Shown here: positions 6,381 through 64,000 of the stretch, in pieces | Numbering within the stretch: position 1 is the stretch's first letter | Layout of the letters: each line of letters opens with the position of its first letter | Source: a virus | Strand: one strand, 5' to 3' | Virus record (IMG/VR): IMGVR_UViG_3300000839_000006 | DNA length: 64,000 nt | Position numbers and translations under genes: made by a program | The notes under the pieces: generated by a model | The model's database searches: none | Seen by the model: only the letters and a program-made list of their open reading frames with translations | What the model was told of the DNA's origin: nothing

Positions 6381-6414
6381 GGGGAGAGCGGTTTAACATC
6401 GCTCTCCCCTATTA
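6381..6414 (+). terminator. hairpin between tail fibre and AT-rich cassette (terminator or processing site)
   Basis: GGGGAGAGCG-N9-CGCTCTCCCC followed by only TATTA (weak U-tract). Confidence 0.4.
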
Positions 6415-37629: not shown

Positions 37630-37666
37630 CGTGGGTGTACTGGTGTGGTCAGTACACCCACGTTTT
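37630..37666 (+). terminator. probable intrinsic terminator
   Basis: 13-bp stem CGTGGGTGTACTG/CAGTACACCCACG followed by TTTT. Confidence 0.5.
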
Positions 37667-37680
37667 ACAAAGGAGTACCA

Positions 37681-38136: not shown

Positions 38137-38720
38137 TTCTCACACCGTATAACGCATCGTTGAACAACATACTGGAAAAAGATGCCAACTTTCTGCCACT
38201 GTCCCGTGCAGATGAGACTCGATTGATGGAGCTTATCCCTGAAGATGACGGAATCTACCTGACTCTGAAAGATAATCTGTACACCGAGTATGTGTATGTG
38301 GAGAATCAGTGCGGCACTCTGGTTGTAACTCGTGGTGTGGATAGCGATGCCAAACGCTTTCCACGTGGCACCTGTGTATTTTTTGAAACCTCACTGCCTG
38401 TCATCAAATGGCTCATCTGCAACCACCAGTGTTGTGACGGCCCCTGTCCGTGTGAAGCTGTCACTGTTGCAGGTGTTGTATCACCTCCTGCGCTGGTTGG
38501 ACATTCATGGGACGGCTCGGCAATATTCAAAGGCGACACTCCTATGGTGTTCGGAGTAACTGGTATGCCAAGCTGGATGACAGCCGACTGGTCTGCCAAC
38601 CATGTTCATCTGACAGGTACTCCTACAGCACCCGGATTGTGGACAGTTTCTATAGCTGCTACAAATTGCAATGGCGATGGCGTAGCTGTTCAGACTCTCA
38701 CTGTTGCAGTCACGACATAA
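38133..38720 (+). CDS. structural protein with C-terminal Ig-like (putative Ig) domain
   Basis: FGVTGMPSWMT...HLTGTPTAPGLWTVSIAATN motif, ATGA coupling. Confidence 0.6.
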   Translation: MILTPYNASLNNILEKDANFLPLSRADETRLMELIPEDDGIYLTLKDNLYTEYVYVENQCGTLVVTRGVDSDAKRFPRGTCVFFETSLPVIKWLICNHQCCDGPCPCEAVTVAGVVSPPALVGHSWDGSAIFKGDTPMVFGVTGMPSWMTADWSANHVHLTGTPTAPGLWTVSIAATNCNGDGVAVQTLTVAVTT

Positions 38721-38754
38721 AAATTGGGGCGGTTATTGACACCGCCCCGTTTTT
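38721..38754. terminator. intrinsic terminator at the convergence of the two arms
   Basis: GGGGCGGT-N7-ACCGCCCC with TTTTT after and an A-run before. A second 10-bp-stem hairpin lies at 38806-38834. Confidence 0.7.
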
Positions 38755-38843
38755 GTGATTGGGTGCCTCCACGTCCTGTTGCAGACGTATTGGCCTCCGG
38801 GTAAGCCCCACTCTGTTTCGCTGGCAGAGTGGGGTGTTCCTTT

Positions 38844-39140
38844 TTATACATAAGCCACATAGTCTCCGTACTCATCCCGTAGCAGTGGTATAGGTATGGA
38901 TTTGTTTGTCGTATAATCAAACATAAATGATATATCTCCCAATCCAATGAACACATATGAGTCCATACGACCGTCTGCTACATCAGGTGTGATATGCACT
39001 ACCGTGCCAGTATCCAGTGTGGTAATCTCCGCGCTATATGGATGCAGAGCCTTTGGAACATACAACCTGCCCCGGCGGGTTATATGTGACATCATCTGAC
39101 TCGGACGGTGATGTGCTATTTCTTCAAAACTCTTAACCAT
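38844..39140 (-). CDS. hypothetical protein
   Basis: Start reassigned to MVKSF just after the primase stop. GGAGG RBS. Confidence 0.5.
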   Translation of the reverse strand: MVKSFEEIAHHRPSQMMSHITRRGRLYVPKALHPYSAEITTLDTGTVVHITPDVADGRMDSYVFIGLGDISFMFDYTTNKSIPIPLLRDEYGDYVAYV

Positions 39141-51228: not shown

Positions 51229-53772
51229 TCACACCACCGTAAAGTCGTAACCAGATTCTACTTCACAATCAATCGGTATGCCCTGTGCCCACGGCGGACA
51301 CTGACGCAACCAGTGGTAGTAAATCTCTTCAACTACTTTATGCCATGCCTCAGGTACTACCGAACCCCATGCGTCATGGATGTTAATATGCATCGGTATC
51401 CTTGAGATTGTATGCATCTGTACAGCTTGCCAACTAAGTATGGCGAAGGCCAGTCCCTGATTGCAGTTATGAACTATCATTGGTTCACCTGTACCACGCA
51501 CTACGAATCTGTTTCGTGGGCCACAGTCGAGGATGTCGTACACTGGGGTGCTGCATAGCATGTGGTAATAAAGTGCGTTCCCTGTCTGCCCCTTTAACGC
51601 TTCAACGGTTGCAGGTTTTTTAATCTCACATGCTTTTTTCCAACGTCTACCAGTCCACACCAAGTGGTCTGGTGTCATACGCACACCTTGTACTTCGATG
51701 CATTGTTGATTGTGTTTATATACCACACCTCCGTGGTAATAAAAATCATCACCATCAAAGATACGGTCACTTGCTAACACATTTTGAATAGGAACCCAAC
51801 CACGCCATGTGTACACTTCAACATCTTGTGCAATACAGTTATTAAATACAAGCCCACCATACACATGTTTCTTCTGGACTCTACCCTTGGCAAACTGGTC
51901 ATACACAAAGGACGGCTTGTTATGTTCATTCAACTCAGTACGTAGATTAGGGTACCGTATCCAGTAACCATTTGGCAACATGATACTGGGGACTGTACGT
52001 CCGAACACTTGCGCCTGACCATCATAATACAGAGTATTACCTTGAGGGCCACCGAAGTATCCAGCATTACCATTGAGCATGGCGACAAGAACATTCTCGC
52101 ATGTCTTCCAGAACTGTTTAATCATGGCATACTTGGTACGATAAATCTTGTTGGCTCTAGTGGCCTCTTTCAAATGCCCTGCCGGGGTGCTGTCTATGGT
52201 TCCATCCTCCTCTGTAAAGGACAGGTGAATACCTTGCTGGCTTAGGCGAAGTGCATACTTGGCAGCACCAATACCGTATTGACTACTAAGAATACCTTCC
52301 TTACCTACGTTACGCATAGTCTTATACTTCGGAGCTTCTGCCGCAGACTTGCCCTCACCCTTGGTGTAGTGAAGTATCTTTTCTGGTGCCACGGAGTATA
52401 TGTCTGAAGCAAGGTTAGCATATGGGTCACGCTTATTGGCGAAGTCATCAAGTAGCTGTTGCTCACACGCCAGCCATGCCCCGGTTCTACACTCAATCTG
52501 CGAGGAGTCACCAGCCACCACCAGCATTCCGGGGGCCACATTGATACACTTCCTCAGAGTCTTATCCCCTGTTCGCTTGGCAAGGTTCTGTAAGTTGATG
52601 CCATCACTGACATATTCCCCATCATCCGTGCCGCCCGTGTATCTGCCCGTGCCAGCAAGCCAGCACTCAAGGGGAACTGGCATGACACCGCGCCGGGATA
52701 TGCCCAAAAAAGTCTCACAGCGGCTCATAGCGATGCTTGAGTTGTTTTCGGCCCTCGCAGTAGCCAGAGCAGCTATATCGGGGTTCTCGTGCCTCTGTAG
52801 AGCCATGAACTCAAGGTCTTTCTTGGCAAGGGCCGGGGTCAGAATCACGTAGTCCTCAGTTTCAAGCTGCTCACGTACCGCCCGCCATGTTTTGGCTATG
52901 GTATGGTCGCTGACCTCCAAGTCTGTGCCAGTAATCCCTATAGCAGCCAGTGACTGCTCCCAACCCTGCATCATTTCCTCAAGCTGTTTCTTACGAGTGG
53001 CAGTCTGCGCGGCTGATACCTTGTATGGAACCACCGCACCTATCTGTTGGAATAACGCAGCACATTTATCCTTTGAGCGTATGGCCTTCAGGAATGCCTC
53101 TGTTGTAGGAAACTTGAACAGGTGCTTGAGCCTGTCCATTGCAGTCTGGTGTTGTAGTTCCAGTTTTCCATGATACTCTTCCAGCATAGGCTTGTTCAGG
53201 ATGAACGGCGACTGCGTGTACATGCGTGTTGTCATGGAGATTTGATGCAGTGCATCCATTGTCATGTGCGGCAACATCTTGTTCACATTCTGTCGCAGCC
53301 CCTCCACGTCACCAGTGCAGTACCGCTTGTACTCGAACAGTTCCTGTTGTGTCAGGTCTTGGATATGGCGTCCAGACATGGACTCAATGAACCCGCCCTT
53401 GGTATGGGTGCCAAGAAACTCACAGAGTGCCGCTTGACTCTCACGGGTAAGGCGAGAAATACCCGTCCACCGCGCCATTGCACGAGTGCATATTGGATTC
53501 GCAATCTTGATACCAAGGTAATCCTCCGTAATGAACGCATCGAACTTCGCGTTCTGCATGTACACCCATGTGTTGGGGTCATCTAACGGGAGTATAGTAA
53601 GGACACTACGAATCAAATGTGCGGGTACCATCTGCACGGGCTGGTCGTCCACTGCTACACCGAGGAGATGCAGTTCAAACCTAGGGTCTCTGACATATTC
53701 CTCAATGGACATCTTACGCAGTGTGTATGTGCCGTTCTCGTAATATGATTCGTAGTCAAGGAAGATGTTCAT
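51229..53772 (-). CDS. polA: family A DNA polymerase with 3'-5' exonuclease domain and an intein
   Basis: LDYESY (ExoI), GDSSQIECR (motif A), RNVGKEGILSSQYG (motif B), IHDAW (motif C). Confidence 0.93.
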   Translation of the reverse strand: MNIFLDYESYYENGTYTLRKMSIEEYVRDPRFELHLLGVAVDDQPVQMVPAHLIRSVLTILPLDDPNTWVYMQNAKFDAFITEDYLGIKIANPICTRAMARWTGISRLTRESQAALCEFLGTHTKGGFIESMSGRHIQDLTQQELFEYKRYCTGDVEGLRQNVNKMLPHMTMDALHQISMTTRMYTQSPFILNKPMLEEYHGKLELQHQTAMDRLKHLFKFPTTEAFLKAIRSKDKCAALFQQIGAVVPYKVSAAQTATRKKQLEEMMQGWEQSLAAIGITGTDLEVSDHTIAKTWRAVREQLETEDYVILTPALAKKDLEFMALQRHENPDIAALATARAENNSSIAMSRCETFLGISRRGVMPVPLECWLAGTGRYTGGTDDGEYVSDGINLQNLAKRTGDKTLRKCINVAPGMLVVAGDSSQIECRTGAWLACEQQLLDDFANKRDPYANLASDIYSVAPEKILHYTKGEGKSAAEAPKYKTMRNVGKEGILSSQYGIGAAKYALRLSQQGIHLSFTEEDGTIDSTPAGHLKEATRANKIYRTKYAMIKQFWKTCENVLVAMLNGNAGYFGGPQGNTLYYDGQAQVFGRTVPSIMLPNGYWIRYPNLRTELNEHNKPSFVYDQFAKGRVQKKHVYGGLVFNNCIAQDVEVYTWRGWVPIQNVLASDRIFDGDDFYYHGGVVYKHNQQCIEVQGVRMTPDHLVWTGRRWKKACEIKKPATVEALKGQTGNALYYHMLCSTPVYDILDCGPRNRFVVRGTGEPMIVHNCNQGLAFAILSWQAVQMHTISRIPMHINIHDAWGSVVPEAWHKVVEEIYYHWLRQCPPWAQGIPIDCEVESGYDFTVV
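51466..51837 (-). mobile_element. 124-aa mini-intein in the DNA polymerase
   Basis: Block A CIAQDVEV, block B TPDH, block F VYDIL, block G IVHN followed by Cys+1. No room for a homing endonuclease. Confidence 0.9.
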
Positions 53773-54670: not shown

Positions 54671-54972
54671 TGCACATGCTCCCGCAGCCAGTCGTTTATC
54701 ATCTCAGCGCAATGAGCATCACTTTCTGAACCGCAATCCCCAGTCCATGCAGGACAGTGGTCACACGCATGGTGAACATCCGTTGCCTTGACAAAGCTCT
54801 GTATCATGTAGTCAAGTCTGCGCTGTACCACATCCATGTCATTAAGATACGCTGTGAGATTCCGTATACATTCGTCACTACCGGGTGGCGGAAAATCGCA
54901 GTCCAGTACAGGACACTGCCTACAGTGACCACCGATAGCAACCCTATGCACGTATGCTTTAATCTTTTCCAC
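54667..54972 (-). CDS. Cys-rich small protein 4
   Basis: Two CxxCP modules, GGAGG RBS, GTG start. Confidence 0.55.
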   Translation of the reverse strand: MEKIKAYVHRVAIGGHCRQCPVLDCDFPPPGSDECIRNLTAYLNDMDVVQRRLDYMIQSFVKATDVHHACDHCPAWTGDCGSESDAHCAEMINDWLREHVQ

Positions 54973-55057
54973 TAGACGGCCCTCCGTGGTTTATGTGTCA
55001 GCATCCTACACTGGACGCTCAGTTTAATTTGGTGCCTCCGTAGAGGCACCTGTTAAA

Positions 55058-55684
55058 CTAAGAGTTACCTGTTCTGTTGCGAAACTGGTCAATCTCTTCT
55101 TTGGTAGCCAACCGCCAGCGAACTATGTTCTGTGTGGTGTCAGCCTGTTCACCCCAAGGCAGTTCCTCTTGCATCGCTGGAACATAGTTGGTGCCGTTTG
55201 CGAGTTGTGCAACAACTACAGTCTGCAAGTTGGTAGCACATGTCTTGTTGGCAGCACGGTCTTTATCCGTCCACTCCCGCCAAGCATAGGGGTCTTCCGC
55301 TTCTGGCAGAGTCAGCCCTGCAAGGTCAAACTCAAGGCTCTCAATGTCGCCGCCCTGTTCAACAAAGCGGGCAAGCTTTTCTTCAATCAATGCACCATCC
55401 CAAGTTACATACTTTCGTATCGTGGTGTACGGGATGCCAAGTATCTTTGCCATAGCCTTCTGGTCTACACCGAGTTCTGTATACCGCATGACATAGCGGT
55501 ATACATCATACCGGGTTTCAGAACGCTTGCCATTACTGGAAACCTTAGGCGTAGACTCTTGCAACTTGGCTTCCAGCACAGCGATACGGTCTTCTGCGGC
55601 CTTCGCCCTCTTCACCATGATAGGGAGGTACTGTTCAATCAGCCCCTTCACAGTAAGTTCAAGCTGTTCAAGTCGCTGTTGCAT
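55058..55684 (-). CDS. coiled-coil plus HTH protein
   Basis: QKAMAKILGIPYTTIRKY HTH pattern. Confidence 0.55.
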   Translation of the reverse strand: MQQRLEQLELTVKGLIEQYLPIMVKRAKAAEDRIAVLEAKLQESTPKVSSNGKRSETRYDVYRYVMRYTELGVDQKAMAKILGIPYTTIRKYVTWDGALIEEKLARFVEQGGDIESLEFDLAGLTLPEAEDPYAWREWTDKDRAANKTCATNLQTVVVAQLANGTNYVPAMQEELPWGEQADTTQNIVRWRLATKEEIDQFRNRTGNS

Positions 55685-55693
55685 GGTATCACC

Positions 55694-56179
55694 CTACGCC
55701 TTGGGTGCAGGGGCCGGGTCAGCTTTCTTGGGTGCGGCAGCAGGTACAGGTTCAGGTTTCTTTGGCGCAGGAGCCGCAGCAGGGGCAGCATCGCTCCGCT
55801 TTTCCCACAACTTCATATCCTGCATCTTCTTACGCCGGGTCTTCTGCAAGTCCTTGCAAATCAGAGACTGGCTGCGCTTGTACCCGCACAGGTCACGGTA
55901 GGATTCAGGAGTGTGACCAATGGTAGCGAGGTAACGCTTTGTGATAATCTTGAATTGTTTACCAGTGACGCAGCAGGTCACAGTCTTGTCACGAATAGCA
56001 GTAGCCGGGTCGCATACCAGTTTGGGAGCGGTTTCAACAGTGCCACCAGCGGCAGCAGCCGCAAGTTCTTCAGCTACCTGATGCACATAGGCACCAAGTT
56101 CAACGGGAGTCATAGCTTTAACACCAGCCTGTGCTTTCGCAATTTCCATAGCCATCGCCATAAATTCAGTTGCAGACAT
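55694..56179 (-). CDS. mucR: MucR/Ros-family nucleoid-associated regulator with Ala/Pro/Lys tail
   Basis: EIAKAQA..V..MT, DPATAI, TC...GKQFK, YRDLCGYK...LIC..LQ..RRKKM.DMKLWE. Start reassigned to ATG 56179 after AAGGAAGG. Confidence 0.82.
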   Translation of the reverse strand: MSATEFMAMAMEIAKAQAGVKAMTPVELGAYVHQVAEELAAAAAGGTVETAPKLVCDPATAIRDKTVTCCVTGKQFKIITKRYLATIGHTPESYRDLCGYKRSQSLICKDLQKTRRKKMQDMKLWEKRSDAAPAAAPAPKKPEPVPAAAPKKADPAPAPKA

Positions 56180-56228
56180 TATTGTCCTTCCTTTGGGTTT
56201 GTGGTGCTTATGCACCGTTAGTGAGTCT

Positions 56229-56257
56229 TAAATAATCCACCTGAAAAAATATGTCAA
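56229..56257 (-). promoter_or_regulatory. possible sigma70 promoter for mucR
   Basis: TTGACA, 17 bp, TATTTA. The -10 is weak. Confidence 0.35.
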
Positions 56258-56601
56258 GTAGAAATTTCTTGTTTCTCAGGATATATTTTTACCAGAAGTT
56301 CATGGAATGGAAACTCCCCGGTAACAACCTTGGCCTGAGTCAATGCCATGTACAGCATGAAGCAGTCAATCGTCAGATGTGATATAACCTCTCCCAAAAC
56401 CTTGGGCTTCTCAAGCTTGTCGAAGCGATGGTTCATCGCATCATCCAGCCGCTTGCAAAATTCTTTGTAGCTGGCCTCTGCCAGTAAGATGATTCGAGGC
56501 GGCGACATGGGGTTAAGGCTCTTGATAAACGGCACCAGTTCAGGCGGGAAGCCGGGGTTATGGAATGCCACTGGCCCCACGTAGTCTATGAAAGTTGTCA
56601 T
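56254..56601 (-). CDS. hypothetical early protein
   Basis: ATGA coupling. Confidence 0.5.
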   Translation of the reverse strand: MTTFIDYVGPVAFHNPGFPPELVPFIKSLNPMSPPRIILLAEASYKEFCKRLDDAMNHRFDKLEKPKVLGEVISHLTIDCFMLYMALTQAKVVTGEFPFHELLVKIYPEKQEIST

Positions 56602-56888
56602 ATCAGTTCGTCCAGTGTGACAATGTTGATTACTTTGGACAGCGTACCATCTTTCTTGTACGGCTGTACGCGAAGCTGCCAAAAAGGTTCGCTATCAGTA
56701 CCCTCCACCGCCACCACAAGACCAGTCTGATACTCACCGAAGCGGGGACTACATGTCATCTTGACAACATCCCCAACTTTATGTGGGCAAATTTCATAGG
56801 CAACCTGTTGTTTTGTTTCGTTGTATTCGTCCACAGCTTTTCGCATGATGCCATACTTATGCTGCAACAAGTCTTTATAATCTTTCAT
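56598..56888 (-). CDS. hypothetical early protein
   Basis: GGAGG RBS, CPHKVGD motif. Confidence 0.55.
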   Translation of the reverse strand: MKDYKDLLQHKYGIMRKAVDEYNETKQQVAYEICPHKVGDVVKMTCSPRFGEYQTGLVVAVEGTDSEPFWQLRVQPYKKDGTLSKVINIVTLDELI

Positions 56889-57205
56889 ACCACCTCCAAG
56901 TAAGCTACAGGTTTATTCGACAGCCGTTCGTGCAACCAGAACAGCTTCTCCGTGCGCTTCACTAGTACCGTAATGGATGGATGCGCGTCAATCCCATTCT
57001 GAGCCAAGGCTCTTCGCACGTTGCGCTCTGTCACATTCAACATGTAACCAGTGTTAAAATGTATTGCTCCAAGCACAGTCCACTCCCGCCGCCCATGCTG
57101 ACAGATACCACAGGCTTGTTTGAACGCACAGTTCTGTATGTCAGGACATTGGATACCGTCATCACGTGTGTTGTTCACCTTGTAAATTTTGTATTCTATT
57201 TTCAT
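56885..57205 (-). CDS. hypothetical early protein
   Basis: ATGA coupling. Confidence 0.5.
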   Translation of the reverse strand: MKIEYKIYKVNNTRDDGIQCPDIQNCAFKQACGICQHGRREWTVLGAIHFNTGYMLNVTERNVRRALAQNGIDAHPSITVLVKRTEKLFWLHERLSNKPVAYLEVV

Positions 57206-57408
57206 CTGCCACCTATTATAATAGCCTTATCAGATACCAGCATAACATGTTTTTCCTCTTGTGCTGTGAACAGTTGAGCCAGACTATACCGCTTGGTGTA
57301 TTCCGTAGACTCTGGCATGTACTCCTGTATCTCTGCCCATTCACCCGCATAATGAGGCCAGTCGTCAAGAAATTCTTCTATTGAATAGTAGTAAACGAAC
57401 TTACGCAT
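57202..57408 (-). CDS. small acidic early protein
   Basis: GGAGG RBS. Confidence 0.5.
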   Translation of the reverse strand: MRKFVYYYSIEEFLDDWPHYAGEWAEIQEYMPESTEYTKRYSLAQLFTAQEEKHVMLVSDKAIIIGGR

Positions 57409-57608
57409 TCTATTTCCACCTCCACGACATGAAGCCGCGCTTCTGTATGATGTAACAACCGCCGCACCCTGAATTGTGTGATAATATCACCGTCTTCTAT
57501 CATGTTCTCAGCCCTTCGCAACCACCGCAGTCTAGTACGCAACTGATGCGGACACTGCAACTGTAAAGTCTCTTGTATATGTGTGAGCTTTTGAGTAAGT
57601 GCTTCCAT
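57378..57608 (-). CDS. hypothetical early protein
   Basis: ATG directly after the upstream stop. Confidence 0.4.
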   Translation of the reverse strand: MEALTQKLTHIQETLQLQCPHQLRTRLRWLRRAENMIEDGDIITQFRVRRLLHHTEARLHVVEVEIECVSSFTTIQ

Positions 57609-57609
57609 G

Positions 57610-57918
57610 TTATACATCCATACCACATTCAATACAATATTCCTCATCATTCACTACCACATGATTGGACAATGGAAGTCCGCACCCGCATTCAGCGCAG
57701 TAGAAGTACCCTTTATCGAAACAGTTATCACATACATAGTACCCACTTGTTTCTATATAATGTGTGTCGGCTCTATCAAAATAATCCCAACAGTCCCTAC
57801 ACCGCTCCATGTTATCATGCGCCTGACACTTGTTACAAACAGCGTACCCGGTCGCATTTACATGCAGTTCTTCAAAGTCACTCGTTCCGCACACGTCACA
57901 CTTGTACTGTTTCATCAT
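57610..57918 (-). CDS. multi-CxxC zinc-finger protein
   Basis: Six CxxC pairs, GGGAG RBS. Confidence 0.6.
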   Translation of the reverse strand: MMKQYKCDVCGTSDFEELHVNATGYAVCNKCQAHDNMERCRDCWDYFDRADTHYIETSGYYVCDNCFDKGYFYCAECGCGLPLSNHVVVNDEEYCIECGMDV

Positions 57919-58117
57919 AGCAACTCCCACATAAAAGTTCACTTTCATAATCAACGCACTCACTACGAAGGTCAATATCCCCGCAATGCTCACACATAAA
58001 GTAGTGGTTATCATAGCAGGTGTCACATATAACCATGTCCCTTACCGTTATAACTGTCTCTTGCAGGGAGTATTCGGCTCCGCAGTCATCACATTTAACT
58101 CGCACTAGCACTTGCAT
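57896..58117 (-). CDS. multi-CxxC zinc-finger protein
   Basis: Four CxxC pairs. Confidence 0.6.
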   Translation of the reverse strand: MQVLVRVKCDDCGAEYSLQETVITVRDMVICDTCYDNHYFMCEHCGDIDLRSECVDYESELLCGSCYDETVQV

Positions 58118-58437
58118 ACCTTCTTTCTATAGTGTTCACGCAATAGTGGCGCACACTCACCGAGCGGCCTGTTCTCTATACACTTCTTCTCGCATATAAT
58201 CACAAGCCGTATCTTATGCAGATGTGTTATCCGTTCCGCCAACGTGGTAGCCTTACGAGCTTTATCATAATCACACGCTGGCCCTTCCAACGAAGCATTA
58301 AAGGACTTGTCTTTAAGCTCCGGGTATACAGTATTAAACATAACGCTCTCAATAAGCTGCCTACGCAACTCTTGTGCTTCAAAGTTATTTCTTTCTATAC
58401 GGTCATGCACCTCTTTAATTTCCTGATAGTACATCAC
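58105..58437 (-). CDS. hypothetical early protein
   Basis: GGAGGAG RBS, GTGA coupling. Confidence 0.5.
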   Translation of the reverse strand: MMYYQEIKEVHDRIERNNFEAQELRRQLIESVMFNTVYPELKDKSFNASLEGPACDYDKARKATTLAERITHLHKIRLVIICEKKCIENRPLGECAPLLREHYRKKVCKC

Positions 58438-58637
58438 TCCTCCCAGTTTCTAGCAGCTAATGCCCGTTCTATCACATCGAAACCTGCTTGTATAGCGGCA
58501 TCCTGAATATCTTCTTCAATGGATTCCAACAAGTCCATAGCCTGTTCATCAGTAAGACGTATCTTGTGGGCTTCTGCTTCGCCTAATACATCACCGATGC
58601 ACCAACGTGTTGTAGCTAACCACTGTTGTTCACGCAT
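58434..58637 (-). CDS. small acidic early protein
   Basis: GAGGAGG RBS. W.I.DV motif. Confidence 0.5.
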   Translation of the reverse strand: MREQQWLATTRWCIGDVLGEAEAHKIRLTDEQAMDLLESIEEDIQDAAIQAGFDVIERALAARNWEE

Positions 58638-58821
58638 AAACAGGAACCTCCTCATAGTATACGCATTCCTGCGTGTTCTCATCAGTTATTGTAAAGATAC
58701 CCCAACCACACAGTGCAGTAGTTTTAATATGCCAGTGAGCAAACTCAATGGATTCGGACACTGTATCAAAATACATAACTGTATTGTTTGCCCCGTGCAT
58801 GTTTATCTGTACGCGAAACAT
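58630..58821 (-). CDS. small early protein
   Basis: TAATG coupling. Confidence 0.45.
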   Translation of the reverse strand: MFRVQINMHGANNTVMYFDTVSESIEFAHWHIKTTALCGWGIFTITDENTQECVYYEEVPVYA

Positions 58822-59156
58822 CAGCGGTACCAGTATGTAAAACCGTCAATATCAATGGACGAATAGTCATCCTTCAACGCATCAGCCGCACACTCCCAGT
58901 CAATACAACTATAAGGCCATGCAGTAATGTTATTTATAAAGCCCGTGTCTTCAACAAGTTGCATAGTATACTGTATAAAATAGTCATCTTCTATCAGTTC
59001 AGCGGGATACCATTCATCATTCCATTTAACATCATGCCCGCAGTCTGCCAGTTCCTCAAGAGCTTTCGCGTACAGTGGGCGATCATCCTCATCTTTATGC
59101 ATATCTTCAAAGTATTCTATCATACCTTGAACGTCAATAATATTCTCGCCTATCAT
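58821..59156 (-). CDS. highly acidic ArdA-like (antirestriction/DNA-mimic candidate) protein
   Basis: 28 D/E versus 6 K/R in 111 aa. C-terminal WPY.CIDWE.AA..L..DY...Y.YR pattern. Confidence 0.5.
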   Translation of the reverse strand: MIGENIIDVQGMIEYFEDMHKDEDDRPLYAKALEELADCGHDVKWNDEWYPAELIEDDYFIQYTMQLVEDTGFINNITAWPYSCIDWECAADALKDDYSSIDIDGFTYWYR

Positions 59157-59401
59157 ATTATAGCCTCCAATCTGTTTTGCGTATCCACGTCCAGATACAA
59201 GTCTTGTTTATTATCAATTATGTACAGCGTCATATTGTTGGCATAGCAAATTGCATACACCCTTCGCCATTTATTAGAGCCGTACCTCATCTGGTATTGG
59301 GTGGGGACTTTCCCGCCGTAGCCGTTCTTGTCGCGCCCGTGGTTCGCTGCCTTCTCGTCCCGTTTTACCGCCCAAACGAGGTTAGGTAAGGTGTATCTCA
59401 T
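59153..59401 (-). CDS. hypothetical early protein
   Basis: GYGGKVPT...WRRVYAICYAN motif. Confidence 0.55.
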   Translation of the reverse strand: MRYTLPNLVWAVKRDEKAANHGRDKNGYGGKVPTQYQMRYGSNKWRRVYAICYANNMTLYIIDNKQDLYLDVDTQNRLEAII

Positions 59402-59694
59402 TATTGTGCCTCTCGTGCCCTCCTAGGGGCAGGAATATGTGACTTGAGCCAAGCCCGTGCCGCCGTCAATCGAAAGAAAGTTCTTTTGGTTTTCGTATAG
59501 GGAACCGGGTTGAACCATATTTCAACGTGGTACAGTCCCGGCCTTTTAAACAGATACATATTAAGAAGTTCTGTCTTAATATTTTCAACCGTGCCTTTAT
59601 CCAATGCGTGAGCAGTCAGCCAACCTGTTTTGGTAAAGTCTTTCGGGTGTTCAGCATGAAGCCTTCGCCCTTCAATCCTACTGTCGTATATCAT
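59401..59694 (-). CDS. hypothetical early protein
   Basis: TAATG/ATGA coupling. Confidence 0.5.
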   Translation of the reverse strand: MIYDSRIEGRRLHAEHPKDFTKTGWLTAHALDKGTVENIKTELLNMYLFKRPGLYHVEIWFNPVPYTKTKRTFFRLTAARAWLKSHIPAPRRAREAQ

Positions 59695-60302
59695 ACCATA
59701 ACCCCTTCGATTGTAAATTCATATGCACCATCGCGCATATTGTCCGATATATATTCATCGCTATTAAGATATCCCCATTCTTCGTCAAGACGTTGCAAAG
59801 CGTAGCTTGTAAACAGTTCCATAAGTTCCTGCAAGGCTTCCTCTTGCACGTCCGTTGCCCTATTGTCGTATCCTGTTGTCGTTAAGCAGCGGCAATCATC
59901 TACTATCAGGCCGTAGTATCTACTACGAGTAAGCTTGCAGTGCAGTCCATAGAAGTTGGACTTCTGTATGGAATGCTCAAGCTTCAGAAACTCTTGCAGG
60001 AATATTGATGTACTGTCATCTCGCTTGTGATATGTACCGAACTCTTTCACAAGACGTTCTTTCTTTTCGGAGAGATAGTTATAGCTTCCCCTGAAAGAGA
60101 AGTGCCTACCACGGTTAAGGTCAAAAGATGCGGTCTTACCTTCAATGGTAATGCCAAGGTTGTTTCCAACAGTCTCAATATCCATTAAAGTATAATCATA
60201 CCAATCGCATTCTATTGTGTTACGCCACTTGTCCAGAGCATACTCTTGTGCCTTTGGTGACAGTTCATCAAACTTATACACCGTTGTTATTATTTCTCGC
60301 AT
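59691..60302 (-). CDS. conserved early/leading-region protein
   Basis: TVYKFDELSPKAQE.A ... YLNSDEYI...YEFT..G pattern; AGGAG RBS. Confidence 0.6.
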   Translation of the reverse strand: MREIITTVYKFDELSPKAQEYALDKWRNTIECDWYDYTLMDIETVGNNLGITIEGKTASFDLNRGRHFSFRGSYNYLSEKKERLVKEFGTYHKRDDSTSIFLQEFLKLEHSIQKSNFYGLHCKLTRSRYYGLIVDDCRCLTTTGYDNRATDVQEEALQELMELFTSYALQRLDEEWGYLNSDEYISDNMRDGAYEFTIEGVMV

Positions 60303-60380
60303 GGTAATTACTCCTACGGATTAGAGGTTAGTGTCAATCGCTTCATGGCTGCTACAAGTTCCACTTGTAGCAGGTAGCAG

Positions 60381-60641
60381 TTATCGACGTGAGAGCTTTA
60401 CCGCAAGTTTCGTGTTGCGTCTTTCACCGGGCAGTAACATTTCCAGTGCTGGTATCACCCATGTATCAAGGTAAGTTCTGCTAACAAGTTCAATCTTTGT
60501 GCCGTACATTTGACTTTCAATCTCTGTTTCAACAAGGATTTTTCTCGCCCTGTTTATACCCATTCCGCCGCACCCGCAATCCGGGGCTTTCAATCGGTCA
60601 ATGATGTTCTGTACTGTTTCCAGTTCTTCACGTGTCATCAT
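60381..60641 (-). CDS. hypothetical early protein
   Basis: In operon order. Confidence 0.5.
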   Translation of the reverse strand: MMTREELETVQNIIDRLKAPDCGCGGMGINRARKILVETEIESQMYGTKIELVSRTYLDTWVIPALEMLLPGERRNTKLAVKLSRR

Positions 60642-60651
60642 ACAGCACCCC

Positions 60652-61005
60652 TTATGTTATGGAATAGCACCCGGTCAAGGTATCAATCCAGATTATATCT
60701 GATGCCTGTATGATACTCCCATCAAATACCGCCTCAAAGTTCTTCTGCGTGAAGCCATACAAGTGCCTCCTCCACTGCTTCCGGCTCTGCATGATAGTCA
60801 ACAGGCCGTTCAATCGCTCCCTTGTAGTGGGCGTGTTCCAACCGCACAATGTGAGGGCAAGCGTATGCTGTTCAGTCCATGCAATCAGGTTGCCATGTAA
60901 GCGCAGTACTGGCTTGCCGTCTTCGATTGTTACTGTCGTATTATTGTTGCTGTACCGCTCACCATGGACGAATGCCAGTGCCGCTTCCCTTGTTACTCTT
61001 CGCAT
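60652..61005 (-). CDS. conserved early protein (GW.T.TT.ERLN motif)
   Basis: AGGAG RBS. Related to the C-terminal half of the upstream ORF. Confidence 0.6.
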   Translation of the reverse strand: MRRVTREAALAFVHGERYSNNNTTVTIEDGKPVLRLHGNLIAWTEQHTLALTLCGWNTPTTRERLNGLLTIMQSRKQWRRHLYGFTQKNFEAVFDGSIIQASDIIWIDTLTGCYSIT

Positions 61006-61568
61006 GAGATTACTCCTGTGATTAAACTGATAATGTTATACTTCCCCTGCACAACTGCACCTGTGACATTAAGAGCTTTAAGAATCCCGTCAAGCCTGTT
61101 GCGCATTGTCATACTAGCACCTACAGGGAGCCATACAGATATACGTGTTTCGAACAACTTCCGTTGCGCTATCAGGGAATTGTCAACAAACAGTGAGGTA
61201 ATATGTTTCTTGTTTTGTACCTCCGTCAAGCCCTCCCGCATGGGTGTCCCTGTGAAAAATGCCCGAACTACTCTGCGATTAATCGCGCTTCTGGCCTTGT
61301 CAGGAGTATACCTGTTGCATGGCGGGCACAGTTCCTTGTCGCTGTATTCGTGCCACAGTTCGGGGAAGGCGGTATAGTACGATACAGCATAATTCCACCC
61401 CTTGCGTGCGGCCTCATTCCAAGCGGCCTCATGGTTCCCATTGAGAATGTAAAAAAATTCTCGCAGTCCGTTGCTTGACACAAGAGCTGTTGTTTGCAAG
61501 CTGTTGTATCCATATGATGTAGGATTATATGAGATGTAAAACCCATCATGTTGTGTTATTTTATTCAT
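60993..61568 (-). CDS. two-domain early protein
   Basis: C-terminal half resembles 60652..61005. Confidence 0.55.
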   Translation of the reverse strand: MNKITQHDGFYISYNPTSYGYNSLQTTALVSSNGLREFFYILNGNHEAAWNEAARKGWNYAVSYYTAFPELWHEYSDKELCPPCNRYTPDKARSAINRRVVRAFFTGTPMREGLTEVQNKKHITSLFVDNSLIAQRKLFETRISVWLPVGASMTMRNRLDGILKALNVTGAVVQGKYNIISLITGVISCEE

Positions 61569-61581
61569 GGTGTACCCTCAC

Positions 61582-61776
61582 CTAGTTATATATTACGTTG
61601 TACTTATATACATGTGGACGTACTTCAACAGTCCATTCCTTTTGCATAATCATACCGCGCCTACGGCAATTAATTCGCTGTAAATTATATTCTTCGTATG
61701 TACAGCGCACGCCGTCAATGTAGTATCGGTATGTGTACAGCTCCCTGTCACAGTATCTGTACTTGATAAAGTTCAT
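61582..61776 (-). CDS. small early protein
   Basis: In operon order. Confidence 0.45.
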   Translation of the reverse strand: MNFIKYRYCDRELYTYRYYIDGVRCTYEEYNLQRINCRRRGMIMQKEWTVEVRPHVYKYNVIYN

Positions 61777-61778
61777 AA

Positions 61779-62078
61779 CTACTTACCCCACATATTATTA
61801 ACAGACTTCTTCCACGACTTCATGCACTTCGCGCATGGGAGTTGCGGCAAACGTTCGCCGTCAATGTCACCGGAGCCGTGGATTGAGGCACAAGTAGGGC
61901 ATACCCACAAGCTGGCCTGTTCCCGCGCAGTATACTGGCGCAATACTGTACCGATATGCATATGCCAGTTCCCTACCTGTTGCACAAATCCTCTCGCCCT
62001 GACGCAAAGCGCGAACGGGTGTGTATTGTAAGAGTTAAAAATTATCACAGTTTTACGTCCAGCTAATACAGTTTGCAT
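61779..62078 (-). CDS. early protein with CxxC pairs
   Basis: Starts from the repeated leader module. Confidence 0.5.
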   Translation of the reverse strand: MQTVLAGRKTVIIFNSYNTHPFALCVRARGFVQQVGNWHMHIGTVLRQYTAREQASLWVCPTCASIHGSGDIDGERLPQLPCAKCMKSWKKSVNNMWGK

Positions 62079-62107
62079 GGTATTACTCCCACGATTGGAT
62101 TGTTAGT
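62072..62107 (-). repeat. 36-bp leader repeat copy
   Basis: Identical to 62912-62947 (minus strand ACTAACAATCCAATCGTGGGAGTAATACCATGCAAA). Confidence 0.9.
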
Positions 62108-62159
62108 AGACACCGTATCGGTACAGGGATTCCTCCCGGTTCCCTGTACCTAACAGGGT

Positions 62160-62402
62160 TTACTTGTATGGCCTTGAGCTACATGTTACCAGTTTTGCTC
62201 CTCTCTCTATGGAGTACATAAATTGTGCGCGGAAATCAATTCCTGTGGACACATCACTCTGGACTATTATACAAGCGTCATCGTATCGCTGTATGTTGCA
62301 AAGCTGTGCTATTTTACTTCCAAGTTCCTCCTGTTCGCAGGTTATCCAACAAAGTTGTGGCTTGTCATATTCTGCCAAGTGGATTGCAAGTTGATATCGC
62401 AT
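62160..62402 (-). CDS. small early protein
   Basis: Starts from a degenerate leader copy (62399-62428). Confidence 0.5.
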   Translation of the reverse strand: MRYQLAIHLAEYDKPQLCWITCEQEELGSKIAQLCNIQRYDDACIIVQSDVSTGIDFRAQFMYSIERGAKLVTCSSRPYK

Positions 62403-62406
62403 GGTA

Positions 62407-62628
62407 TTACCCCCATGATTGAATTGTTTCCCTGATACAAGTCAGGTTGTAGCGTGCCCCGTCAGGTGTCCGCGTTCCTTCAAGTGCGCGATAAAGGATT
62501 CCTGTGGCCTTGCGCTTACCATGTTGCGCAATTAAATAGTCAATGTGTTGTGCGGCTCTGTAGTCATTCGAGAGCCAGAGATATACGTTCCAAGCGTTCC
62601 AGCTCCGGTGTCCGTTGTACGTTGCCAT
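62407..62628 (-). CDS. conserved small early protein
   Basis: YNG..SWNAWNVYLWLSND motif. Confidence 0.6.
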   Translation of the reverse strand: MATYNGHRSWNAWNVYLWLSNDYRAAQHIDYLIAQHGKRKATGILYRALEGTRTPDGARYNLTCIRETIQSWG

Positions 62629-62918
62629 TATATCAACACCTTTGATATAAGCAGGTGAGCGTCACAAGTACAGGTAGTGCCGGAAGGGTAATTCTCTCCG
62701 CAAAATTCGCACTCGCTCATCAGGGCGATAAAGACCACATCTTCCAAGGTGAGCTGGCTTATGTGATATATGACCGCCCCATACTGTGATACAAGTTTAA
62801 AATGTGTACTGTCTATGTAATGGATTGTTCGCTCTATACCGTCAACAAGTAGCTCTTGACCATCTGCGAAAGTGTGTGCTACAGGGCCGTAAGGGCGTTG
62901 CAAGATTGTTATTTGCAT
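62628..62918 (-). CDS. small early protein
   Basis: Starts from the repeated leader module. Confidence 0.5.
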   Translation of the reverse strand: MQITILQRPYGPVAHTFADGQELLVDGIERTIHYIDSTHFKLVSQYGAVIYHISQLTLEDVVFIALMSECEFCGENYPSGTTCTCDAHLLISKVLI

Positions 62919-62947
62919 GGTATTACTCCCACGATTGGATTGTTAGT
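62912..62947 (-). repeat. 36-bp leader repeat copy
   Basis: Identical to 62072-62107. Confidence 0.9.
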
Positions 62948-62999
62948 TGGGCTTAGGCTCAATGCCTGTCGCAAGTTCCCCTTGCGACAGGGTAAGAGG

Positions 63000-63299
63000 C
63001 TAGGCAAGTGTTATACTACGGACAAGGCACATGTATTCGATGATATCGTTACAAATTTCTCCGGAATCACCGCGCCTATCGGGGATACTGTCAATCACAT
63101 TCTTTATGTGGGCAAGCAAGGCCGGGAGCAAGAGTGCCGCTTGTGTAGCGTCAAGCTGTATGCAATCGGTTGCGTCATAAATAAGTGTGCGCATATCGCT
63201 GTAAATACGTTGCAGAGTTGTGTCCTTTGTTGCGGCAAGGACAGGGGACAGACTGGCAAACAAGGTCTCACGCTGTTCAGCAGTAACATAAATGTACAT
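63000..63299 (-). CDS. first gene of the early arm, hypothetical
   Basis: Start reassigned to ATG 63299 after AGGAG (63312-63308). The longer track ORF runs through the promoter region. Confidence 0.55.
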   Translation of the reverse strand: MYIYVTAEQRETLFASLSPVLAATKDTTLQRIYSDMRTLIYDATDCIQLDATQAALLLPALLAHIKNVIDSIPDRRGDSGEICNDIIEYMCLVRSITLA

Positions 63300-63348
63300 G
63301 GTGGGTACTCCTAAGGAGATTAAAGCGTTATTGTTCTTGCCTTGTATA

Positions 63349-63366
63349 TAGCAAAGGGCGTGCCAA
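63349..63366 (-). promoter_or_regulatory. sigma54 (-24/-12) promoter candidate
   Basis: Minus strand TTGGCACGCCCTTTGCTA: TGGCACG-N4-TTGCT, with GG and GC exactly 10 bp apart, about 50 bp upstream of ATG 63299. Confidence 0.6.
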
Positions 63367-63379
63367 AATGTAAGTATGC

Positions 63380-64000
63380 GAAATGATTGGAAGCGGGTAC
63401 TGGAAAGCGTATAAAATTTTGTACTGATGGAGAAGGGGAATCGGAAAAAGTGTAATGATTTAATAGGTTGCGCAGGGATTGGAAATATTTTGAGGGCTGA
63501 AAGGGGTTGCGGGAGTAGGCGGTTTAAAAAGTTGTACAATGTAATGGCGTGTGTACTTAAAAGTTGTATACATAGTACAATATATTGTACGGATATAGTA
63601 ACACAAGGCTTGTGGGTAACAATGTAGGGTACATAGGCGATACACTAGTTGATACATTAAAAAATGTGTAGGAAATTAAAGAGGTTAGTAGGGGTGTACA
63701 TTGTAAAAAGGGGTAAAAATAACTTTGCGGAATTTTTTTTGAAAAAAGGACAGAGAAACCATATCATTTCTACAAAAAAGGACAGGGGCAAAAAAGGTAA
63801 AATGGCTTTGACCTCCAAAACAAAAAAAAAAATGTACAAAAAAGTTATTTATTATTATTTTACTATATAAAAATATATATAAATAGTCCTTTTTCTTGTA
63901 CTTTTTCCTGTGTATTTTTCTGTGTGTCCCTTATGCACCCTGCATTGTTCTCCACAAACTTTGTTTTACTGTGGACTGCTTGTATATTCTTCAACAATTT
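63380..64000. other. AT-rich non-coding control/terminal region with poly(A)/(T) tracts and GTAC-containing palindromes
   Basis: No credible ORF. Perfect 16-bp palindrome GTACAATATATTGTAC at 63575-63590. Confidence 0.55.

Follow-up and report, generated by a model that had tools for sequence, protein, structure and literature searches.

Background

Early regions of phage genomes house the genes for host takeover, and the partitioning of their expression is known for few model phages only. In bacterial operons, stable hairpins of the stabiliser or repetitive extragenic palindromic (REP) type lie just past stop codons without a U-tract, and they are expected to give the segment upstream a stability of its own. 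Among phages, the closest described systems are the R-sites of T7, the promoter-early stem-loop (PeSL) elements of T4-type phages and the start-associated sequences (SAS) of Cluster K mycobacteriophages. The present study deals with three repeated intergenic modules (M1, M2 and M3), each a hairpin followed by a leader and a translation start region, on the minus strand of a 64,000-nucleotide stretch of viral DNA (hereafter the window; bases 710-64709 of the 65,279-bp IMG/VR record IMGVR_UViG_3300000839_000006). The modules are variants of the known phage devices and not a new kind of element. Their layout is T7-like but independently evolved, with the stop codon kept inside the helix and a start-associated leader attached as the two twists.

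The T7 R-sites (R0.3, R0.5, R1, R1.1 and R1.3) and the modules have in common a promoter cluster at the genome end that feeds a polycistronic early transcript. Between the cistrons both have hairpins which span some two helical turns, lack a U-tail and contain an internal loop (in the modules a predicted one), and the sites of one genome are partly homologous to each other. In Escherichia coli, an RNase III epitope of two helical turns (about 20 bp, coaxially stacked helices included) with an internal loop that confines cleavage to one strand is cut once and leaves a protective 3' hairpin (PMC1540722), and by these rules the upstream mRNA is expected to end in such a hairpin at the modules as well. 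Unlike the T7 sites, the modules lie behind sigma54-type and not sigma70 promoters, carry a conserved leader and start region and are sites of predicted cleavage; they also show no sequence similarity to the R-sites and no Rfam match. M1-M3 resemble the bacterial stabiliser and REP-type hairpins in being stop-adjacent, within an operon and free of a U-tract, but are longer, two-tiered and stop-embedding, form a small homologous family which two phages share, and come with a repeated start region.

The PeSL elements are likewise repeated from stop codon to ATG over about 80-100 bp among small orphan early genes (Arbiol et al. 2010, PMC2839356), with a stable stem-loop and a terminal Shine-Dalgarno sequence, and their copies, like those described here, could recombine to move cassettes. 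The 840-bp unit of genes B, C and D with the M2 hairpin, described below, is formally a PeSL cassette minus its promoter. However, the defining feature of PeSLs is a strong early promoter of the sigma70 type, which is not detectable in the modules, and only three full copies occur here; moreover, the PeSL stem-loop that was tested was read as a terminator or attenuator (PMC2839356), whereas the modules are free of U-tracts and canonical terminators stand elsewhere in the genome. The Cluster K SAS, the role of which is still open (PMC12699233), is an asymmetric motif with a Shine-Dalgarno core a few nucleotides before the ATG, and the spacing of 3-8 nt used to define it is also found here. It occurs in several copies of one orientation at non-structural genes only, its flanks cannot pair with 16S rRNA (PMC3203893) and a subset of copies is preceded by an inverted repeat, all of which finds a parallel in the modules. 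The two differ in sequence (leader GGAGTAATACC against SAS consensus GGGATAGGAGCCC) and in distribution, the SAS being cluster-wide and the leader confined to one genome. The extended start-associated sequences (ESAS) of Cluster K are imperfect conserved 17-bp repeats with departures that do not preserve RNA pairing (PMC3203893), whereas the module stems are perfect, varied and covarying.

Organisation and structure of the modules

The early genes 1-10, named A to J in order (A, 63299-63000; J, 60302-59691), encode small proteins without assigned function, four of which have their only matches in domain or phage families that are themselves uncharacterised. They form coupled blocks in the order A, M1, B-C-D, M2, E-F-G-H-I, M3, J and following genes, and the gaps within blocks range from -13 to +13 nt. 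The stop-to-start gaps on the minus strand which hold M1, M2 and M3 measure 81, 81 and 78 nt, respectively, and have a common order: the stop codon, 7-9 nt, a perfect stem of 10-11 bp, 12-17 nt, ACTAAC and AATC..GT.GGAGTAAT(T)ACC-ATG-C(A/G)A, with GGGAG or AGGAG as the Shine-Dalgarno sequence. A sequence-only reading of the window had described this layout for the three spacers, and the analysis bears it out on the minus strand with all the positions that it gave. The stems were said to lie about 8 nt beyond the stops and are found to begin 7-9 nt past those of A (63000), D (62160) and I (60381).

The folds predicted with RNAfold extend beyond the perfect stems (Table 1). In each module the perfect upper stem passes through an internal loop into an imperfect lower stem of 8-10 bp, the 5' arm of which holds the stop codon, so that the total comes to 19-20 bp; for M3 the program draws the upper stem as 11 bp with the loop GGA. 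The folding z-scores of M1-M3 lie between -3.0 and -4.1, and none of 200 shuffled sequences was equally stable. Perfect hairpins of at least 9 bp are rare in the whole 65,279-bp genome, and M1-M3 account for three of only nine, so that the modules are no product of chance. M1 and M3 are homologous across the entire gap, and the M2 stem is unrelated to both. Three consecutive positions differ between the M1 and M3 stems (TCG/CGA as against CTA/TAG), each with its compensating change in the opposite arm.

Table 1. Window coordinates of the hairpins, leader copies and promoter-type matches discussed in the text
Feature	Position	Strand	Description
M1 two-tier hairpin	62951-63005	minus	upper stem perfect, 11 bp, 62965-62991; loop GGGAA
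M1, lower part			4x4 internal loop, then 8-bp lower stem including the UAG stop of gene A
M2 two-tier hairpin	62105-62164	minus	upper stem 10 bp, 62120-62150; 11-nt loop ACCGGGAGGAA (GGGAGGAA within)
M2, lower part			2x3 internal loop, then 10-bp lower stem including the UAA stop of gene D
M3 two-tier hairpin	60333-60388	minus	upper stem 60349-60373, 10 bp with loop TGGAA
M3, lower part			5x6 internal loop; lower stem (8 bp) overlaps the UAA stop of gene I
M1 leader	62912-62947	minus	ACTAAC..AATCGTGGGAGTAATACC-ATG-CAAA of gene B; 36 nt
M2 leader	62072-62107	minus	start region of gene E; 36/36 nt identical to the M1 leader
M3 leader	60297-60332	minus	diverged copy ACTAACCTCTAATCCGTAGGAGTAATTACC-ATG-CGA of gene J
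Leader copy at gene D start	62396-62431	minus	78%; inside the 3' end of gene C; without hairpin
Leader copy at gene H start	60999-61034	minus	69%; inside the 3' end of gene G; without hairpin
Leader-like start of gene A	63297-63320	minus	TTAATCTCCTTAGGAGTACCCACC-ATG; sixth, partial copy (63297-63317)
Sigma54-type match 1	63350-63365	minus	TGGCACG-N4-TTGCT, about 50 nt before gene A
Sigma54-type matches 2, 3	64245-64260, 64286-64301	minus	equivalent positions, just past the window end
S hairpin	55017-55064	minus	fourth hairpin of this class; follows gene S (55058-55684), the neighbour of the MucR homologue
Fifth hairpin without U-tail	6381-6409	plus	10-12 bp, GGGGAGAGCG..CGCTCTCCCC

No U-run follows the M1-M3 stems, the tails being CAUUGAGCC, GAUACGGUG and CCAUGAAGC; a terminator scan found no hairpin followed by a T-run on the sense strand in the modules or the early region, which upholds the earlier observation on this point. 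Terminator-like sites in the early region number two, against 8.7 +/- 2.8 in shuffled sequences. Canonical terminators are nevertheless present in the genome. Where the two arms converge (38720-38850) lies a textbook bidirectional terminator with an A-tract, a GGGGCGG hairpin and a U-tract; a second U-tailed hairpin is found near the convergence and a further one after the gene for a protein of 2571 amino acids, and the terminator coordinates also include 37630-37670 (37630-37662 on the plus strand). Since U-tailed terminators exist where the arms converge, M1-M3 constitute, at the level of sequence, a class distinct from terminators. A promoter scan likewise detected no sigma70-like promoter in the three gaps, inspection by hand revealed no consistent -35/-10 pair, and internal sigma70 promoters in the modules were therefore rejected.

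A mini open reading frame of 10 codons (ATG AAG CGA ... CCG TAG) is present in M3 alone (60303-60340, minus strand), where its stop overlaps the Shine-Dalgarno sequence of gene J. It is probably incidental, because M1 and M2 have no such frame.

Conservation of the hairpins in related phages

Relatives were retrieved through alignment of the DNA polymerase, which placed the phage in a lineage of 55-66-kb uncultured phages. Single-protein searches with the DNA polymerase and gene J for related loci returned nothing. A megablast search with the 4.4-kb region found nothing among 50,697 phage records, so that no close relative was found at the DNA level, and Rfam gave no match either at gathering thresholds over the whole window or at E-values up to 5 over 54800-64000. 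The closest relative, hereafter L088 (JAFQBW010000009.1, 64,046 bp; DNA polymerase identity 54%), was found by searching bacterial and archaeal genome bins. It shares homologues of J, L, R, MucR and S. Among the relatives defined by the DNA polymerase, genes A-I have no homologue except for H, and a homologue of J is present in L088 only. Homologues of J in IMG/VR occur at 32 loci in unrelated phages with unrelated upstream regions, and these yielded no further copies of the hairpin before J. L088 is filed within a Methanocorpusculum metagenome-assembled genome from goat caecum; it is probably a mis-binned phage of a bacterial host, because its Shine-Dalgarno sites, sigma54-type promoter and MucR gene indicate such a host.

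Five gaps of L088 (76, 76, 84, 94 and 95 nt) contain long multi-tier hairpins which start from the stop codon, mostly lack a U-tail and are each followed by a short leader and a Shine-Dalgarno sequence, with a repeated leader of its own (TTAAAACACTGGAGGA). Its hairpin before J, a helix of 26-30 bp, sits where M3 does and is likewise a member of the CAAG/CTTG family, which comprises M1, M3 and two L088 hairpins; the loops of the latter (TCATCTGA and a loop of 17 nt) are without GGA. In the alignment of these four members, 97.6% of the cells are paired and 5 of the 11 pairs are changed on both sides, a level of covariation reached by none of 500 shuffles, while slid controls were only 26-44% paired.

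The S hairpin consists of an upper stem of 8 bp capped by a UACG loop, an internal loop of 2x3 nt and a lower stem of 10 bp that includes the UAG stop. It lacks a U-tail and is conserved at the same position in three phages, namely the present one, L088 (8917-8964) and another relative, L006 (9930-9981). Here 96.6% of the cells are paired and 8 of the 20 pairs covary, with support for both helices and with covariation in the GC-rich upper stem. Several of its pairs are G-U, and an invariant U-G pair involves the U of the UAG stop. As G-U pairs form only in sense RNA, the S hairpin is an RNA structure. The covariation counts of both families rest on three to four sequences, with two or three informative relatives.

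In 24 related loci, many of which are related to each other and hence not independent, 24% of the 60-nt windows starting at the stops of 40-200-nt gaps have folding energies of -25 kcal/mol or below, as compared with 2.2% of coding controls, an enrichment of about 11-fold. Eleven of the 12 strong stop-adjacent hairpins in a non-redundant subset of the relatives lack a U-tail. Judged from these comparisons, the hairpins are conserved sense-strand RNA elements of about two helical turns between translationally coupled blocks. Conservation in related phages, which had been proposed as a check, is thus seen for the hairpins, with covariation, and not for the leader, which the relatives lack.

The shared leader and start region

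The leaders of M1 and M2 are identical over 36 nt, as had been noticed earlier, and the identity has sharp borders; the M3 leader differs from them at 9 of 36 positions. The partial copies described at that time were recovered and extended to those at the starts of genes D and H (Table 1), and the stop of gene C is the TAA within GTAATACC, part of the gene D copy. A profile of the leader run against the genome gives six copies (at A, B, D, E, H and J), all on the minus strand, and the next match has an E-value of about 1. By our own reading, the conserved flanks of the leader add no pairing with the 16S rRNA tail. Searches of the IMG/VR and JGI metagenomes with exact and degenerate forms of the leader gave only chance matches in unrelated contexts, without hairpin, ACTAAC or protein similarity.

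BLAST comparison of the relatives with themselves shows repeated leaders only sporadically (L028, L041, L017 and L088) and with no common sequence. L006 also has G-poor, CA-rich leaders 5' of AGGAG, which suggests that the common requirement is an unstructured ribosome landing site. The leader itself looks like a start-associated sequence which has been copied recently and is restricted to a subset of the non-structural genes. Its exact identity in M1 and M2 is best explained by recent recombination or duplication and not by extreme constraint, because the leader is absent from the relatives and the M3 copy differs. The two 36-nt direct repeats flank a unit of 840 bp which contains B, C, D and the M2 hairpin.

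Within that unit, a separate 9-bp hairpin occupies the B/C junction (62628-62650, minus strand; TTATATCAA-AGGTG-TTGATATAA-TG). Its loop displays the Shine-Dalgarno sequence of gene C, and the stop of B falls within its 3' arm, which directly adjoins the overlapping start of C (TAATG). It looks like a translational coupling device.

Proposed processing or stabilisation of an apparently sigma54-driven early transcript

Perfect matches to TGGCACG-N4-TTGC(A/T) occur three times in the genome against about 0.06 expected by our own estimate; all three are on the minus strand, in the non-coding region at the genome end, and point into the early arm (Table 1). The match before gene A is presumed to be the source of the transcript that bears the modules. 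L088 carries the same motif (TTTGGCACGGGCCTTGCTATAT, L088:947-967) before its early genes. A sigma54 activator or enhancer-binding ATPase was not found among the 67 phage proteins scanned against Pfam. Use of sigma54 has a precedent in Pseudomonas phage YuA (PMC10914365), and the phage studied here represents an uncultured gut lineage with apparent sigma54-driven early transcription.

The non-coding region upstream of the early genes (63300-64000 of the window and on to the genome end) is rich in short repeats: it holds four of the five genomic copies of TACATTGT, and GTACA is enriched 4-fold. Equivalent regions are L006:1-1180, with 10 copies of ACATTGT/ACAATGT, and L088:600-960, with ACTGTAA repeats. 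Such repeats could be binding sites for a regulator or activator, or origin repeats.

The reading that we favour, with a probability of roughly 0.45 and hence tentatively, is that the modules act as RNase III-type processing sites or as 3'-stabiliser sites, i.e. exonuclease barriers, which divide the sigma54-driven early transcript. Host RNA polymerase would transcribe a polycistronic early mRNA from the promoter cluster at the genome end. Past the last stop of each coupled block, the RNA would fold into the perfect upper stem, the internal loop and the imperfect stop-bearing lower stem; because the hairpin has no U-tract, it would not be a transcription end and transcription would continue. 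The hairpin would then probably be cut once by a double-strand-specific RNase of the RNase III type, or would block 3'-to-5' exonucleases. In this way the upstream block would acquire a protective 3' hairpin and the blocks would gain separate stabilities, while the G-poor, unstructured leader with its strong Shine-Dalgarno sequence would give the next block an independent and efficient translation start.

The helix lengths agree with such a role. With 11+8 bp in M1, 10+10 in M2, 11+8 in M3 and 8+10 in the S hairpin, they correspond to the approximately two turns recognised by RNase III, by an E. coli rule which may not be that of the host. Internal loops are predicted as 4x4, 2x3 and 5x6 in M1-M3, where the lower helix is weakly supported, and as 2x3 in the S hairpin, where both helices covary. 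RNA processing or stabilisation had been the first of the functions suggested for the stems, and it fits best with the two turns, the internal loop, the missing U-tail and the compensatory changes; the action itself is inferred from the structure.

Several observations weigh against this interpretation. The lower stems of M1-M3, compared with shuffled flanks, give p = 0.03, 0.09 and 0.19, which is weak when taken alone. The M1-M3 folds are equally stable in sense and antisense, so that strand specificity rests mainly on the G-U pairs of the S hairpin. The leader is absent from more than 80 related loci and private to this genome, which leaves its function without comparative support. The Pfam scan of the 67 proteins detected no phage RNase III, CsrA, RegA-like or other RNA-binding protein. 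Finally, sequence alone does not separate an RNase III site from a barrier to exonucleases or from a pause site or attenuator.

Alternative explanations

The main rival explanation, which we regard as unlikely though a serious contender, is that the hairpins are attenuators or pause sites without a U-tract, possibly factor-dependent, which insulate the cassettes and grade expression along the operon. Very stable GC-containing hairpins directly past stop codons would suit this role, and PeSL stem-loops hold the same stop-to-start place, one of them having cut reporter expression like the rrnB T1 terminator (PMC2839356); the surrounding genes are orphans, as in the hyperplastic regions of T4. 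However, M1-M3 have no U-run while the same genome has textbook U-tailed terminators at its operon ends, and the equivalent hairpins of the relatives mostly lack a U-tail as well (11 of 12). Besides, with no promoter-like site behind the hairpins, efficient termination at all three within 2.7 kb would leave the replication genes downstream starved of transcripts. Antitermination boxes, which had also been proposed, are not supported: there are no terminators to overcome, no boxA/boxB-type geometry and no N-like arginine-rich motif in protein A. A lambda-type nut site was rejected on its dimensions, the stems being 10-11 bp against 5 bp with a GNRA-like pentaloop for boxB, with only a weak boxA-like CCTCTTA in M1 alone.

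Translational control appears decidedly unlikely. Under this explanation, a ribosome that arrives at the stop codon would open the lower stem and refold the RNA for the start that follows, or a repressor (CsrA/Rsm or RegA-like) would bind the loop and the shared start region and switch the early genes off together. The lower stem contains the stop in each of the four window hairpins and likewise in their counterparts in L006 and L088, and six early genes share AATC..GGAGTAAT.ACC-ATG-CRA with flanks that pair no further with 16S rRNA, in parallel with the Cluster K SAS (PMC3203893). GGA is present in all three loops and again in the Shine-Dalgarno sequence about 45-50 nt downstream, a pair of GGA motifs such as CsrA binding calls for at a spacing of about 10-60 nt. 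Against this, the GGA loops are a feature of the present genome, being absent from the homologous L088 hairpins and from other relatives, and CsrA/Rsm sites, another of the earlier suggestions, were rejected on that ground. Moreover, the Shine-Dalgarno sequences lie about 30 nt beyond the M1-M3 hairpins and are not sequestered by them, and no CsrA, RegA-like or RNA-binding domain was found in the 67 proteins by Pfam. A more speculative model, which we consider doubtful, would combine the stop-embedding hairpin with processing in a translation-sensing switch, possibly serving also as a mobile boundary for swapping orphan early genes in a sigma54-dependent lineage. Terminating ribosomes would keep the lower stem melted and the site hidden from a double-strand RNase; when translation stops, the helix would form and the block would be cut off, then stabilised or discarded.

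It is improbable that the modules have no RNA function and are only scars or handles of cassette shuffling, i.e. repeats for the homologous recombination of orphan early genes. The sharp-bordered direct repeats around the 840-bp unit are what such exchange would leave, and the leader copies inside the 3' ends of C and G resemble old joints. Apart from J in L088, none of genes A-G and I-J has a homologue among the relatives defined by the DNA polymerase, and in T4-type phages PeSL repeats of comparable size give rise to mini-circles (PMC2839356). The hairpins, however, are held in place by compensatory changes and G-U pairs across phages with less than 55% protein identity, which indicates selection on structure. 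The earlier suggestion of recombination handles is thus plausible for the 36-nt leaders around the orphan block and cannot explain the covarying hairpins; shuffling accounts for the leader identity and not for the stems, and it is compatible with processing as an added role.

Action of the inverted repeats as DNA, either as operators for dimeric proteins or as N4-type single-strand hairpin promoters, is highly improbable. The repeats are perfect palindromes with equally stable folds on both strands, and the inverted repeats of the Cluster K ESAS were proposed as protein-binding sites (PMC3203893). The stem sequences nevertheless differ among the modules, that of M2 being unrelated, so that a single protein could not read them all; their changes are compensatory and not sequence-preserving, and the G-U pairs of the S hairpin would be A-C mismatches on the other DNA strand. 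DNA operators were rejected since the stems differ in sequence and covary. N4 promoters have stems of 5-7 bp and loops of 3 nt. This type was rejected as well, as the stem geometry differs and no signal of a virion or phage RNA polymerase was found in the 2571-amino-acid protein or the proteome.

Genome context and other observations

Structural genes occupy the plus strand as far as about 38.7 kb and include those for the 2571-amino-acid virion protein and a collagen-like fibre. The minus strand carries the replication and early genes, among them those for DNA polymerase A, a DUF927 primase-helicase, a SNF2-type helicase, ThyX and a MucR-like regulator, and this arm begins beyond some 1.3 kb of non-coding DNA at the end of the genome. 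On the plus strand, the fifth hairpin without a U-tail (Table 1) lies 8 nt past the stop of the 1447-amino-acid collagen-like (tail-)fibre gene and directly before adhesin cassette genes, in the style of the early modules.

The DNA polymerase (51229-53772, minus strand) has 847 amino acids, whereas most homologues have about 700 and cover only 76% of it; longer matches are given by a few relatives (L007, L088 and L026-L037). The extra length suggests an inserted segment, e.g. an intein, a homing element or an additional domain. Both ends of the record consist of 4-nt tandem repeats, with GTCA and GCCAGTCA units on the left (genome 1-115) and CAGC units in the last approximately 50 bases on the right, which represent either an assembly break within a circle-closing microsatellite or unusual termini.

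Implications

Covariation across three phages makes the hairpins a concrete and testable RNA element, and the identical 36-nt leaders provide a defined place at which to seek cassette exchange. The annotation of operons in metagenomic phages, where hairpins without a U-tail tend to be overlooked or miscalled as terminators, would gain from their recognition. If the model of a stop-embedding, translation-sensing boundary is true, the combination of hairpin and leader would allow orphan early genes to be exchanged among these gut phages with the adjacent genes left intact.

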